Program-made: the position numbers and the translations under genes
Notes under the pieces: generated by a model
What the model was told of the DNA's origin: nothing
Seen by the model: the letters and a program-made list of their open reading frames with translations, nothing else
Databases searched by the model: none
Shown here: piece by piece, positions 6,847-12,456 of the stretch
Position numbering within the stretch: the first letter of the stretch is position 1
Layout of the letters: every line of letters starts with the position of its first letter
Assembly (NCBI GenBank): GCA_025057455.1
Contig: JANWWY010000003.1
Location: 15,821 to 79,820, forward strand
Length of the DNA stretch: 64,000 bases
Direction: 5' to 3'
DNA from: Aquificaceae bacterium
GTDB lineage: Bacteria > Aquificota > Aquificia > Aquificales > Aquificaceae

Positions 6847-9800
6847 TCATACCATAGAAAATATCCTCACTGCTTCCTCTTCTGGCATGGGCTTTCCTAA
6901 AAGGTAGCCTTGAATATAAGTACAGCCCATCTCCCTAAGCATAATGAGTTGTTTCTGGCTTTCCACACCTTCTGCAAATGTTTCTATACCAATGTCCCTG
7001 CTAAGACCTATTATATGCTTTATTACCGCTCTCTTTCTACTATCAAAGACCATATCCCTCACAAAGGATATGTCAATCTTTACTCCATCCACAGGAAATG
7101 TGGATATGTAGGCAAGGGATGAATAGCCAGTTCCAAAGTCATCAATTAAAAGCCTTATGCCAGCTTCTCTTAGCATTATTGCATGCTCAAGGGTTTTCTC
7201 TGGGTCGCTTAAAAGCACCCTTTCCGTTATCTCAACAGATATAAGAGAATCCTTTGTCTGTTCTGTAAGCGTGCTTATAAAACTTTTGTCCATAAAACTG
7301 CGTGCGGATACGTTTATAGATAGGGGTAGGCGAACCTTGTGGTAAAATTCTAAAACCTTTCTGAGGGCTATACCCTCAAAACTTTTAAGATGCTTACTGT
7401 TTTCCAGATAATCTATGAAGTAATTAGGTCCGTATATACTCCCATCCCTTTCTCTTATTCTTACCAGTGTTTCAAAACCAGCAAGCTTCAAATCCTCACT
7501 TCTGTAATAGGGCTGATAGTAGAAAACGAAAGAGTCCTCTTCTATTGCCCTTCCCACCAGCTCTATGGCAAAGGTTATTTGTTTTACCCTTTCTTCAAAA
7601 TCTGGTTCAAAAAATCTCCTTTCACCCTCTCCCGCTTTTTTTGCGGAGGCTAAGGCTACGCTCGCTTTTTCATGAACTTGATTAAAGGCTTCTCCGTACG
7701 TCACTGCTATGCCCATGTTTATAGATATGGTTAGCCTATCACCACTCTCCAAGGTTATGGGTTCGTCAAGCACCTCTTCTATTTTGTCTGCGGTAAAAAT
7801 AACCTCTTCTTCCTTTTCTATAGGTACAAAAAGAGCAAACTCGTCGCCGGCAACCCTCCCTATAACTCCATAGTTGCCAAACTCTGATTTAAGTCTCTGT
7901 GCTAACTTAGCAAGCACCTCATCTCCCACCTTGATGCCGTATTTTTTGTTTATGAGTGACATACCGCAAACATCAATCAGAAATAAGGCGTTCCTTTTAC
8001 TTCCGCTCATTGATTCTATAGCCTTTAACCTAAGACCATCAAGATTAAGAAGACCAGTAACTGGGTCATAGAAGGTAAGCCTTTCAATCTCAGAAGAGAG
8101 ATAAACCTCTCTTGTGATATCCTTACCTACGCTTATAAACTTTAATGCACCGTTGGGCAAATTCACAGGGTATATGTTTTGCTCAGTATAAAAAAGTTCA
8201 CCGTCCTTTTTTCTATTGACGAAGACAGCATGAAATTCCTTTCCAGAAAGGATGGTATTCCAAAGATTTTCATAAAACTCCTTACTGTGATAACCAGACT
8301 TAAAAATACTGGGTTTTTTGCCCAAAACCTCTTCCTTTGAATAACCAGAAATCTGAGACACCGCATCGTTTGCATATGTAATTGTTCCATCACTATCGCA
8401 AATTAGAACCCACGATGTAGAGTTCTCAAGAGCTGAAGCTACAAGCGTATTCCTCCATAATTCTTCCAATCTTTTTAAGGCAAACTCTACGTCGTATTTG
8501 AGCTCATAAAGTATATCCTTTGCGTCTTCCTGAAAATAATATGGTTCCTCCGCGTAGAGGACGAAAACATATGTTTTCCCATTTCCCTTACTTACTGGTA
8601 TGGCACAGGAAGATAGAAGGTTCATTTCTATCATTTCGTGTTTAATCGTGTTAGGAAGGTCAGAATTTCTAACATCAGGATTTACAACGATTCTATCCTC
8701 CCTGTATGCTTTAAATAAAATGCTGTCCTCTGAGGAACTTTCCAAATCTACTATAGGTTTATCCTTCAGAGAATAGACAGATTCTATGTTGCCTTCCTGA
8801 TTGAATGCACAAACCCACACAAATTTTATGCCCATTTTATCTACCAGACCCTTACATATTCTTTCAAGAAGCTCTTCTTCTAATACAACCTGAGTAACTG
8901 TTCTGTTTACCTCCTTAAGGAGTCTGTAAAATCTCTCAAGTCTTTTTCTTTTTGTTATGTCCACGAGGAAAAGAGCGCCTGCATAATTTCCTTCATAGAG
9001 TATGTTCACTGAGGCGATTAAGGTCCATAATGTAGAACCATCCTTCTTAAAAAGCTGGAGTTCACCGTAGTCTATGGTCGGATGTTCCCCTGAAAGTTGC
9101 CTTTTGACTAAACTTTTTAATAAGCTTCTATAATCAGGGTGGGTCATTTTATCTATTAAGGTAAACACATCCGTATTTCTGATTTCATCAAGCGTATATC
9201 CAGAAAATCTTAAAAAACCTTTGTTGGCAAAAAGCACATTTTCACCATACACAAGAACCCCTATATGGGATATCTCTTTTAGGCTTTGGGCTAAACTTGC
9301 TCCAGACCATAGCCTTAAAAACTTATCAAACTCTCTATGAAGCTTGATTATACTTTGAATATCTTCTTCACCGGCTGTCTCCAATTCTTCAAAGGATAGG
9401 AGCGCGTTTTTTATTCTGTAGTAAAGCTCTCGTTTTACCATAAATATGTGAGATGTATCAAAAACGTAGTCTTCAAGCACTCTAAGTCCCTCTTTCTCAC
9501 TTTCCTCTATCTCATCCCAGGTTTCGCTGTACATTATGCCTGCGTGCACCTCTTTTTCTCTAAGAAGTGAGAAGACCTCATAAAAGTTGTTGGTAAATAC
9601 GAGCCTTATACGCTCCGTATCCAAGCTAATGAGAGGATAACCTATGGGCTTTAAGAAGGGGACAGCTACAAGTATGGAACCTTCCTCTGGAATTCCATCC
9701 CTTACAAGTAGAAAAAACCTATCCCTCTGACCTCTGAATTTGGCCACTGGTTTATACCCCTTTTCGTACAGGAAGGGTGTAACGAAGGGTCCAGCATAAT

Positions 9801-9969
9801 AAAGGTCAAAAAAATTTCCTTCCTCTATCCTTTTGTACTCCTCGACGCTCCCCTTCAATACTTCAAAGTTTACCCTTTCCCCCAAAGATTCCTCTAATCT
9901 TTTTACGAAAGTTTTCCACCTCTCTAAACCTTTTTGCGTATCATGTGGACAGACAGAAAAGTTTAACAT
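6847..9969 (-). CDS. multi-sensor diguanylate cyclase/phosphodiesterase (phosphonate-binding-like fold, PAS, GAF, PAS, GGDEF, EAL)
   Basis: PAS/PAC motifs (KKDGS..W..DIT; KKDGE..KDIT), YDPVTGLLN, RVAGDEF, YQP..FETLVR, DDFGTGYSSL, KID, AEGVE, QGY. Confidence 0.9.
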   Translation of the reverse strand: MLNFSVCPHDTQKGLERWKTFVKRLEESLGERVNFEVLKGSVEEYKRIEEGNFFDLYYAGPFVTPFLYEKGYKPVAKFRGQRDRFFLLVRDGIPEEGSILVAVPFLKPIGYPLISLDTERIRLVFTNNFYEVFSLLREKEVHAGIMYSETWDEIEESEKEGLRVLEDYVFDTSHIFMVKRELYYRIKNALLSFEELETAGEEDIQSIIKLHREFDKFLRLWSGASLAQSLKEISHIGVLVYGENVLFANKGFLRFSGYTLDEIRNTDVFTLIDKMTHPDYRSLLKSLVKRQLSGEHPTIDYGELQLFKKDGSTLWTLIASVNILYEGNYAGALFLVDITKRKRLERFYRLLKEVNRTVTQVVLEEELLERICKGLVDKMGIKFVWVCAFNQEGNIESVYSLKDKPIVDLESSSEDSILFKAYREDRIVVNPDVRNSDLPNTIKHEMIEMNLLSSCAIPVSKGNGKTYVFVLYAEEPYYFQEDAKDILYELKYDVEFALKRLEELWRNTLVASALENSTSWVLICDSDGTITYANDAVSQISGYSKEEVLGKKPSIFKSGYHSKEFYENLWNTILSGKEFHAVFVNRKKDGELFYTEQNIYPVNLPNGALKFISVGKDITREVYLSSEIERLTFYDPVTGLLNLDGLRLKAIESMSGSKRNALFLIDVCGMSLINKKYGIKVGDEVLAKLAQRLKSEFGNYGVIGRVAGDEFALFVPIEKEEEVIFTADKIEEVLDEPITLESGDRLTISINMGIAVTYGEAFNQVHEKASVALASAKKAGEGERRFFEPDFEERVKQITFAIELVGRAIEEDSFVFYYQPYYRSEDLKLAGFETLVRIRERDGSIYGPNYFIDYLENSKHLKSFEGIALRKVLEFYHKVRLPLSINVSARSFMDKSFISTLTEQTKDSLISVEITERVLLSDPEKTLEHAIMLREAGIRLLIDDFGTGYSSLAYISTFPVDGVKIDISFVRDMVFDSRKRAVIKHIIGLSRDIGIETFAEGVESQKQLIMLREMGCTYIQGYLLGKPMPEEEAVRIFSMV

Positions 9970-11060: not shown

Positions 11061-11078
11061 GCTATAATTATATAGCTA

Positions 11079-11151
11079 CGGGGTGTAGCTCAGGTGGAAG
11101 AGCGTTGGCTTTGGGAGCCAAAGGTCGCAGGTTCAAGTCCTGCCACCCCGA
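11079..11151 (+). tRNA. tRNA-Pro (TGG), CCA not encoded
   Basis: Acceptor stem CGGGGTG/CACCCCG, anticodon arm TTGGC-TT TGG GA-GCCAA, T-loop GGTTCAAGTCC, discriminator A. Confidence 0.95.
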
Positions 11152-11225
11152 GGGCCCGTAGCTCAGCTGGACAGAGCAAGGGATTTCTAATCCCTAGGTC
11201 GGGGGTTCGAGTCCCTCCGGGCCCG
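11152..11225 (+). tRNA. tRNA-Arg (TCT), CCA not encoded
   Basis: Acceptor stem GGGCCCG/CGGGCCC, anticodon arm AGGGA-TT TCT AA-TCCCT, T-loop GGTTCGAGTCC; begins immediately after tRNA-Pro. Confidence 0.95.
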
Positions 11226-11837
11226 TATTTCTTCCTGCATGGTTGGGGTTTTAGCTCAAAGGTGCTAAAATCTTTAAACTCTGTGGAGCTCCCCTTTCAT
11301 GGTAGAAGTTCCCTTACCTACACAAACCTCTGGGATTTAGCTAAGGTATTAGCCATTGGAATGCCCAAAGGGTCTTATCTGGTAGGTTGGTCTTTGGGTG
11401 CCAGCATTGCCCTTATGATGGCTTATCTGTTTCCAGATAGGTTTAGAGGTTTACTCCTTATAGGGGCCTGTGCATGCTTTGGATGTTTGTGGCCGGAGAA
11501 AAACCTTAGAGGCTTTATGCTAAAACTGGAGAGAGAGGGAGAAGAGTTTCTTAGAGAATTTAGGCATATGGCTTATCCTAAACCCTTTCAAGATACACTA
11601 AACCTTGAAGGGGCTAAGAGGCTCCTTAAAGACTACATGAAATTGGACATCAGGCCCATTCTTCCTTACATAAAGCAGAAGGTCACAATCCTACACGGCA
11701 CAGGAGACCCAATAACGCCCTTTTCTTCCGCCATAACCCTTTACAACATGCTAAGGAGTGCTAAATTAATAACCTTCGCAGGAGGACATTTTCCCAAGCA
11801 TGAAAGTCTTATCTTTGAGATTCTCAAGGGCTTATAG
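11226..11837 (+). CDS. BioH-like alpha/beta hydrolase (pimeloyl-ACP methyl ester esterase); start codon uncertain
   Basis: FLHGWG oxyanion motif, VELPFHGRS, GWSLG nucleophile elbow, GGHFP; directly upstream of a BioC-like gene. The recognisable region starts at the tRNA-Arg 3' end; the only canonical in-frame start upstream of HGWG is GTG 11094. Confidence 0.7.
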   Translation, partial: YFFLHGWGFSSKVLKSLNSVELPFHGRSSLTYTNLWDLAKVLAIGMPKGSYLVGWSLGASIALMMAYLFPDRFRGLLLIGACACFGCLWPEKNLRGFMLKLEREGEEFLREFRHMAYPKPFQDTLNLEGAKRLLKDYMKLDIRPILPYIKQKVTILHGTGDPITPFSSAITLYNMLRSAKLITFAGGHFPKHESLIFEILKGL

Positions 11838-12456
11838 AAGTTATGAAGAGTGGGCAGTTCCCCAGAGATACACCGCAGAGAAACTTAGAAGTCTTGAGAA
11901 GGTGCAAGGTCTTGTTCTTGACCTTGGCTGTGGCACTGGTCTTTTAAGCCATGGTTTGGAAAAGGTTGTAGGTCTTGATATTGCCATGGGCATGGCAAAG
12001 TATTACAAGAAAAAGTTTGGCAAGGTGGTTCTGGGCGATGCTCACAGTATTCCCTTCAAGGACAAGAGCTTTGACTTTGTTTTAAGCAGTTTTGCCTTGC
12101 ACTGGACAGACATAGAGGTAAGTTTACCAGAGGCTATTAGAGTCTGTAGAGGAAAATTTCTGTGTGCAATGCCGGTAGAAGGTAGTCTTTCTCAACTCGG
12201 TTTCCCCTTTCCTAAGGTGGAACAAATTAGGTCAATCCTTCAAAGGATGGCATACGTAAGGAAGTTCTTCCTGGAGGATGTTCCCATACCCTTCCTCGGC
12301 TGGGACCTTTTAAGGTTTTTTCATTATACGGGGTCTTCTTATAATCCCCTTTTTAAAGGTGGTATAATCTCAAAGGAGAGGGTCAAAAGTATGATTAACA
12401 CAATTGACAAGCCCTTCTTCAGGATTCTATTCTTCTCTTGTGAGGTAAGGGAATGA
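11800..12456 (+). CDS. BioC-like SAM-dependent methyltransferase
   Basis: FSRAYRSYEEWAVPQR start, VLDLGCGTG, FDFVLSSFALHW; adjacent to the BioH-like gene. Confidence 0.75.
   Translation: MKVLSLRFSRAYRSYEEWAVPQRYTAEKLRSLEKVQGLVLDLGCGTGLLSHGLEKVVGLDIAMGMAKYYKKKFGKVVLGDAHSIPFKDKSFDFVLSSFALHWTDIEVSLPEAIRVCRGKFLCAMPVEGSLSQLGFPFPKVEQIRSILQRMAYVRKFFLEDVPIPFLGWDLLRFFHYTGSSYNPLFKGGIISKERVKSMINTIDKPFFRILFFSCEVRE

Follow-up and report, generated by a model that had tools for sequence, protein, structure and literature searches.

A BioH-like esterase gene joined without a spacer to a tRNA-Pro/tRNA-Arg pair in Aquificaceae, and a candidate start codon inside the tRNA-Pro gene

Where does translation of a gene begin when its first conserved codons directly follow a tRNA gene and no start codon stands between them? 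The question is raised by a BioH-like esterase gene of an Aquificaceae bacterium (GenBank assembly GCA_025057455.1, contig JANWWY010000003.1, positions 15,821 to 79,820 of the forward strand; this stretch of 64,000 nucleotides (nt) is called the window, and positions refer to it). Two tRNA genes, tRNA-Pro(UGG) and tRNA-Arg(UCU), follow each other with a spacer of 0 nt (11151/11152), and the first beta-strand of the esterase opens at 11226, the base after the discriminator of tRNA-Arg. The open reading frame (ORF) extends from 11094 to 11837 (247 amino acids, aa), an in-frame TAG lying upstream at 11073-11075. GTG 11094, in tRNA-Pro, is the only in-frame ATG, GTG or TTG located 5' of the HGWG oxyanion-hole motif, and the 44 tRNA-encoded codons between this GTG and the end of tRNA-Arg contain no stop. 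The original prediction, made from the DNA letters, had pointed out the sole canonical start inside tRNA-Pro, the stop-free 44 codons, the Shine-Dalgarno (SD)-like GGGGTG at 11080-11085, the next GTG only after HGWG (11262) and the start of the HGWG strand at the 3' end of tRNA-Arg (position 11225). All these observations hold, the one on the start codon after reading of the sequence, inspection of the ORF list and comparison of 39 genomes. Among the explanations offered at that time (dual tRNA/mRNA coding, a non-canonical start, a 5'-truncated gene), dual coding appears the best supported, considering the reading register, the 0-nt spacer, the avoidance of a TAG in a D-loop and the presence of a single canonical start. 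We propose that translation could start at the GTG of tRNA-Pro on the nascent, unprocessed transcript and read through both tRNAs, in competition with tRNA maturation, a proposal to which we give about equal prospects of proving right or wrong.

An open frame across both tRNAs is in itself unremarkable, one of the three frames being open. In the genome of the window, 15 of the 43 tRNA genes lead into a long open frame on the same strand; for 14 of these 15, all outside the window, an ATG is found 7-60 nt downstream, in many cases together with an SD or a -10 box, and bioH is the only exception. Three things go beyond chance: the missing own start, the conservation of the junction in 39 genomes and the position of bioH as sole exception among the 15. 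The packing of tRNA genes is extreme in this genome. Several of the tRNAs with a close downstream ATG show a TATAAT 6-7 nt 5' of this ATG and look leaderless, some of them without a visible SD.

To describe its distribution, the junction was defined as tRNA-Pro, tRNA-Arg and then the esterase strand without an intervening start codon, the sample being 148 species genomes of the order. It is present in 39 species-level genomes belonging to five genera of hot-spring Aquificaceae: all 24 genomes of Pampinifervens (the genus of the window) having the gene, 10 of the 11 Thermocrinis (g15) genomes, and every genome of three further genera (2/2, 2/2 and 1/1). A DNA pattern scan gave 17 more copies of the same build in metagenome contigs. 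In the other Aquificaceae genera, which presumably include Aquifex, Hydrogenobacter and Hydrogenobaculum, no tRNA lies upstream of the esterase gene. These non-junction relatives have an ATG, GTG or TTG located 5-9 codons before the His of the oxyanion motif (15 codons in two genomes of g10, which we take to be Hydrogenobacter), and a -10 box 6-7 nt 5' of the start often gives their genes a leaderless appearance. The original prediction would have been refuted by orthologs with a start just before the FLHGWG segment; such orthologs exist only in lineages without upstream tRNAs, which strengthens the puzzle.

In the BioH tree, the junction genera group into a single clade (Shimodaira-Hasegawa-like approximate likelihood ratio test, SH-aLRT, 94), which also includes the non-junction g10 and Thermocrinis albus, and the distribution of the junction is explainable by three state changes. 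In T. albus the tRNA pair is located 18 kb from bioH (L089:1500-1647, L041); it has kept the 0-nt spacer and carries the D-loop T giving a TAG, and directly 3' of it stand the four bases CTTG, with which the Thermocrinis junction opens. The bioH of this species has gained an SD and a GTG. More generally, the lineages of the clade devoid of the tRNA neighbour (T. albus, g10) possess an SD and a GTG, TTG or ATG start. The new 5' end of the T. albus bioH (SD, NTG, AGT) resembles that of the g10 bioH, a hint at a shared origin or a transfer. Because the junction is spread over several genera, falls into a single clade and has left a remnant in T. albus, these comparisons indicate that it is old and not an assembly error, and that a normal start arose where it broke.

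The esterase evolves as a functional protein. Its pairwise ratio of nonsynonymous to synonymous substitution rates (dN/dS) lies between 0.07 and 0.20 in all junction lineages. After the tRNA, the residues His, Gly, Gly, Phe, Ser and Ser are invariant among the 39 junction genes and encoded by 2-6 synonymous codons each (2-4 for the His and both Gly of HGWG), a conserved Ser even switching between AGY and TCN codons; the three codons preceding His are always hydrophobic and also vary synonymously. Since the changes are synonymous, these post-tRNA codons must be translated. In the AF2 model the first core strand comprises residues 45-48, exactly the four post-tRNA codons, with a predicted local distance difference test (pLDDT) score rising to 86-94, and the tRNA-encoded residues 1-33 are disordered. 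Taken together, the substitution patterns indicate an esterase alive under purifying selection, first codons included. As the post-tRNA codons both vary synonymously and build the core strand, translation must start at or before 11226.

Where upstream of this point ribosomes would begin was addressed by comparison of the junction genomes. Pampinifervens, Thermocrinis and g12 have 12 nt between the discriminator and His, g13 and g16 have 9 nt, and the alignment of orthologous loci called for by the original prediction places the stop-free tRNA frame and the esterase frame in register in 36 of the 39 genomes. In all 33 of these 36 whose contig reaches tRNA-Pro, the D-loop GTG is in frame, 47-48 codons before His; the same is true of 14 of the 17 metagenome contigs, the remaining three ending too early. 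Neither ATG, GTG nor TTG is found between the end of tRNA-Arg and HGWG in 37 of the 39. No junction genome has a single base between the two tRNAs, and three genomes of the non-junction g9 have spacers of 10, 15 and 20 nt carrying stops.

A codon-by-codon check revealed a single site, base 11172, where a change tolerated by the tRNA family would close the frame. This base is a C in 39 of 39 junction genomes; among the non-junction genomes of the order it is a T in 33 and a C in 12, the T being found in T. albus and in four of the six scored g10 genomes. On the BioH tree, at least 8 C/T changes are counted over 17.0 substitutions per site leading to non-junction tips, and 0 over the 8.3 leading to junction tips. 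Within the clade of 47 sequences, the 4 changes are all confined to non-junction branches (length 1.94 vs 7.89 for junction branches), giving a P of approximately 0.0015 for 4 changes, or 0.04 if only 2 are real, under the assumption that C/T changes are proportional to branch length on the BioH gene tree. This conservation of an open frame is suggestive; such a pattern is to be expected if ribosomes read the D-loop of tRNA-Arg, and would not be if they started downstream. The frame across tRNA-Pro is open, without any stop, in all non-junction relatives, and hence uninformative.

Coordinates of the features of the tRNA/esterase junction in the window
Feature	Position	Strand	Remark
-10-like TATAAT	11064..11069	+	direct reading; 9 nt 5' of tRNA-Pro +1
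tRNA-Pro(UGG)	11079..11151	+	ARAGORN; Rfam RF00005 70.8 bits; CCA not encoded
SD-like GGGGTG	11080..11085	+	5' acceptor strand of tRNA-Pro; 8 nt 5' of GTG
GTG, proposed initiation codon	11094..11096	+	tRNA-Pro D-loop
tRNA-Arg(UCU)	11152..11225	+	ARAGORN; Rfam RF00005 70.5 bits; CCA not encoded
In-frame CAG	11172..11174	+	first base is the tRNA-Arg D-loop position beside A20; a T there gives an in-frame TAG
In-frame ATC, rival non-canonical start	11190..11192	+	tRNA-Arg anticodon loop/stem; AAGGGA 5' of ATC
Terminator-like alternative hairpin and T-rich tail	11203..11234	+	T-arm 5' strand with acceptor 3' strand
YFFL, four codons, first core beta-strand	11226..11237	+	directly 3' of tRNA-Arg discriminator
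HGWG oxyanion-hole motif	11238..11249	+	
BioH-like alpha/beta-hydrolase core	11226..11837	+	203 codons and TAG stop
GTG, earliest canonical start 3' of the tRNAs	11262..11264	+	use would remove the strand and HGWG
BioC-like S-adenosylmethionine methyltransferase	11800..12456	+	own ATG; 38-nt overlap with esterase ORF

The signals available for a start in tRNA-Pro were then considered. The TATAAT at 11064 is the probable promoter of a transcript comprising tRNA-Pro, tRNA-Arg, bioH and bioC. It recurs in this position in almost every Pampinifervens locus, and Thermocrinis has a TTGCAA/TAAAAT pair there. A generic promoter scan left this box uncalled, its -35 being weak, and neither the scan nor reading of the sequence revealed a promoter-like box between the tRNAs and the esterase ORF. 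GGGGTG can form six consecutive pairs, one of them G-U, with the canonical anti-SD sequence taken from general knowledge, the 3' end of the 16S rRNA having been searched for in the assembly and not found. At 70-80 °C, the folding energy computed for the 36 nt that open the transcript is -0.9 to 0 kcal/mol, vs -12 to -7 kcal/mol for the complete tRNA-Pro. Because these 36 nt are essentially unfolded, the calculation predicts that the SD and the GUG are accessible until the 3' acceptor strand is transcribed. Downstream, the hairpin and T-rich tail at 11203-11234 fit the pattern of an intrinsic terminator, the tail doubling as Phe-Phe codons; runs of T7-T9 occur at this tail, 3' of tRNA-Arg, in the relatives.

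From these elements the following scenario can be drawn. A BioH-type gene would have lost its promoter, its ribosome-binding site and its start codon upon base-to-base fusion with the 3' end of the essential tRNA-Pro/tRNA-Arg tandem. Its transcript would begin a few bases 5' of tRNA-Pro, from a conserved -10 box located 9-14 nt upstream, and a ribosome could load onto the primary transcript as it is being made, at the GGGGUG close to the 5' end of tRNA-Pro, the SD and the GUG being visible to the 30S subunit only until the 3' acceptor strand emerges. Initiation would take place at the GUG of the D-loop, and translation would proceed over 44 codons through both tRNAs into the esterase and onward to the own start of BioC, the enzyme gaining a disordered N-terminal extension of 44 residues. 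The transcript would thus have two exclusive fates, either folding and cutting into two tRNAs or use as mRNA if the ribosome comes first, the cutting of the tRNAs destroying the 5' end of the esterase message. Both tRNAs are single-copy and the sole genes for their anticodons in the genome-wide tRNA census; for this reason most transcripts would have to end up as tRNAs, and the few left over would be enough for a biotin enzyme.

As for the maturation itself, the genome encodes HARP (231.6 bits) and no RNase Z scoring over the cut-off was found in it. HARP cleaves 5' leaders and, with a spacer of 0 nt, a single endonucleolytic cut at 11151/11152 would form both the 3' end of tRNA-Pro and the 5' end of tRNA-Arg. 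HARP cuts 3' trailers at least 13 nt beyond nt 72 (PMC12217051). A trailer cut of this kind would fall at or after the His codon, so that the processed fragment could not encode the conserved strand. It may further be speculated that a translating ribosome would block the terminator-like hairpin of tRNA-Arg and thereby couple read-through to translation. In a stricter form of this idea, a kinetic switch, ribosome loading would keep the tRNAs unfolded, suppress the terminator and create the only transcripts reaching bioH and bioC, an unloaded transcript giving the two tRNAs; we regard this version as tentative and somewhat unlikely. Were it true, the output of biotin enzymes would be a fixed small fraction of the activity of the tRNA promoter, a fraction set by ribosome binding against tRNA folding or HARP cleavage.

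Three genomes depart from the common register. L004, L006 and L013 come from independent assemblies and form one clade nested within Pampinifervens; they have 11 nt after the discriminator, with an uninterrupted T9 (C-T9-G/A). The frame of their esterase meets a TAG within tRNA-Arg, 13 codons 5' of His; a TTG precedes His in two of them, and L013 has no start in its frame. Their esterase is still under purifying selection (dN/dS 0.10-0.20, with dS up to 0.5). Read in the tRNA frame, T9 provides a U_UUU_UUU heptamer, and either a -1 shift or an extra U restores the peptide of the other genomes. U_UUU_UUU is a classical -1 slippery heptamer, and a T9 run is at the known threshold for polymerase slippage. 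Slippage by -1 on U_UUU_UUU, whether of the ribosome or of the polymerase, probably makes up for the 1 nt lost in the U9 run.

Several points weigh against a start in tRNA-Pro. The D-loop signal concerns one site, evaluated in related genomes and on a gene tree some of whose nodes are unresolved, and every model with translation of the first post-tRNA codon predicts a conserved register too. Non-junction relatives also have the GTG and the SD-like bases, which bear no sign of selection for initiation. Moreover, tRNAs fold fast and are strongly structured (tRNA-Pro alone reaches -12 kcal/mol at 70 °C), and with both tRNAs in single copy most transcripts must become tRNA. Finally, the out-of-register trio demands a second recoding event, which is an extra assumption, and the TTG placed right before His in two of its members could suffice alone.

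The explanations competing with a start in tRNA-Pro move the initiation site downstream, dispense with a start codon, or deny that the gene is functional. A non-canonical start nearer the enzyme, either the AUC in tRNA-Arg or a Leu/Ile codon before His (CUG, UUG, AUA, AUC, AUU), would give a weak expression, enough for a biotin enzyme. The AUC has an SD-like AAGGGA 6 nt upstream, stands 16 codons before His in every in-register genome and is the start chosen by the NCBI annotation for P0014, P0023 and P0027 (start MPRSGV), but it is paired together with its SD within the anticodon stem, and its use leaves both the absence of a D-loop TAG and the invariant 0-nt spacer unexplained. As for the codon preceding His, 26 of 39 genomes have a near-cognate of AUG there; it serves as annotated start (CTG or TTG) in P0021 and P0024 and is a TTG in two of the three out-of-register genomes, whereas in 13 of 39 it is CTT, TTA or CTA, two mismatches from AUG, and it behaves as an ordinary Leu/Ile codon. 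The hydrophobic strand codons upstream of it vary synonymously, which argues for a translation starting further upstream, and L013 offers no non-canonical candidate in its frame. The ATC/CTG option of the original prediction is therefore weakened on the side of CTG, which is not conserved; ATC still stands as a rival, and the whole explanation is in our view unlikely. We would place well below it a start-codon-independent initiation, at the processed 3' boundary of tRNA-Arg or with the folded tRNA as entry site or P-site mimic. Such a model would account for coding that begins exactly after the discriminator in 36 of 39 genomes with length changes in threes, and a leaderless look, the -10 box lying 6-7 nt from the start, is shared by many genes of this family. 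However, 5'-terminal initiation on CUU, UAU or UUU has no known bacterial precedent, no canonical RNase Z was found in the genome, HARP trailer cuts at least 13 nt beyond nt 72 would remove the conserved first codons, and the D-loop open-frame signal and the 0-nt spacer would again be left unexplained.

The two remaining explanations are at variance with the evidence for selection. A protein starting downstream (GTG 11262 in the window, 184-191 aa in the NCBI annotation of relatives), hence without the first strand and HGWG, is what annotation pipelines propose for P0004, P0026 and P0028 when they pick downstream starts to avoid an overlap with tRNAs. Yet a GTG occurs at codon 11262 in one genome out of 39, that of the window itself, the His, Gly, Gly, Phe, Ser and Ser encoded 5' of it never change although their codons vary synonymously, and the first strand and the HG motif are part of the core fold and of the oxyanion hole, so that this reading is highly improbable. 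Least probable of all, to the point of being almost negligible, is a pseudogene that has lost its 5' end, or an artefact of the assembly or of an indel: the gene has no own start codon and the assembly behind the window is a draft in 66 contigs, but the same junction exists in 39 independently assembled species genomes, complete ones included, and in 17 metagenome contigs. A pseudogene is further contradicted by the dN/dS of 0.07-0.20, the invariant triad, the presence of bioB and bioF and the lack of a second esterase homolog in the protein search of the genome. A truncation, an assembly error or a recent deletion, which the original prediction had kept open, is in this way refuted by the occurrence in five genera, the low dN/dS and the intact triad. 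Other candidates were tried and rejected. The out-of-frame ATGs within the His-Gly-Trp codons open short ORFs only and disappear where His is CAC; read-through from gap, the gene located upstream in the same frame, meets TGA 11058 and TAG 11073, with the -10 box between them, and the upstream sequence varies among relatives; an internal promoter producing a leaderless bioH lacks an A/T-rich -10 box in the 3' half of tRNA-Arg; and TCTAAT in the anticodon loop, taken as a -10, would give an RNA still without a start codon.

The identity of the enzyme was evaluated from its resemblances and its genomic context. The esterase core matches Pfam Abhydrolase_1/6, and its best NCBIfam match is BioH TIGR01738, with 50.3 bits vs a cut-off of 206.95 (PRK10349: 28.4 vs 449). 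BioH chains are the top PDB matches by sequence and by fold, the first four Foldseek matches all being BioH; the AF2 model has an overall pLDDT of 85.5, above 90 in the core, and the catalytic triad S100, D205 and H232 is invariant in the junction lineages. The oxyanion motif is HGFG and not HGWG in seven Thermocrinis and both g12 genomes (L033-L039, L072, L073), and HGYA in g17. The BioC-like ORF matches Methyltransf_11 (5.8e-17) and, with 67 bits, TIGR02072 BioC under its cut-off; bioB and bioF are found elsewhere in the genome, both over their cut-offs. The esterase is BioH-like and not a certified equivalog, and by both resemblance and context it is a putative member of a BioC/BioH pimelate route. 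Apart from the junction, and unrelated to it, the window carries at 6847-9969 (-), upstream of the gene gap and on the opposite strand, an ORF of 1040 aa whose C-terminal half looks GGDEF-EAL-like by eye.

Public annotation gives this one gene five incompatible forms: 247-252 aa; 215-218 aa (ATC); 200-201 aa (CTG or TTG); 184-191 aa, which omits the oxyanion motif; and partial. The starts in use include the GTG in tRNA-Pro, and the database call for the window, P0004, is 191 aa from GTG 11262. Because the five forms exclude each other, the N-terminus given in many database entries of this enzyme is probably wrong. Beyond annotation, if the GUG of tRNA-Pro is the start, this locus would be the first known bacterial case in which complete, essential tRNA genes double as codons of a conserved enzyme. 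It would mean that a gene can outlive the loss of its whole initiation region by borrowing an SD-like string and a GUG that a tRNA has for other reasons, and it would provide a natural system for studying co-transcriptional ribosome loading against RNA folding and processing at high temperature. To our knowledge, the arrangement is not known in bacteria. A full-text search of the literature on tRNA/ORF overlap and on the junction organisms returned no description of it, and nothing relevant was found concerning omics data for Pampinifervens or Thermocrinis.

The protein and its junction can nevertheless be compared with known systems. Like E. coli bioH (PDB 1m33, 4etw), the esterase has an alpha/beta-hydrolase fold, HGWG, a GWSxG elbow and an invariant Ser-Asp-His triad, and its gene forms a pair with that of a BioC-like methyltransferase, bioB and bioF being present in the genome; unlike E. 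coli BioH, it has neither the N-terminal hairpin nor an own start codon, and its chain is shorter by about 50 residues. The position of tRNAs 5' of a protein gene on the same strand recalls thrU-tyrU-glyT-thrT-tufB, the tRNA-Gly/tRNA-Thr tufA2 unit of A. aeolicus and metY-nusA-infB. In such tRNA-mRNA units, the tRNA promoter drives the unit and tRNA processing severs the message. Their ORFs, in contrast, have a spacer, an SD and a start, the tRNA being untranslated, whereas in the window the spacer is zero and the start would lie in the first tRNA. As in SgrS/SgrT, RNAIII/hld and SR1, one transcript would carry both a structured non-coding function and an ORF; in those RNAs the two parts are mostly separate, whereas here two complete, essential tRNAs would themselves be codons, with exclusive fates. 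The abutment of coding sequence on a tRNA without a spacer, and the definition of RNA ends by processing, are also features of mitochondrial tRNA punctuation, but mitochondrial mRNAs begin with a start codon, whereas the first post-tRNA codon is here CTT, TAT or TTT. Lastly, the T9 of the out-of-register trio resembles the A9 of the transcriptional slippage in Thermus dnaX as well as X_XXY_YYZ -1 frameshifting, and its sequence suggests a similar role in these three genomes.

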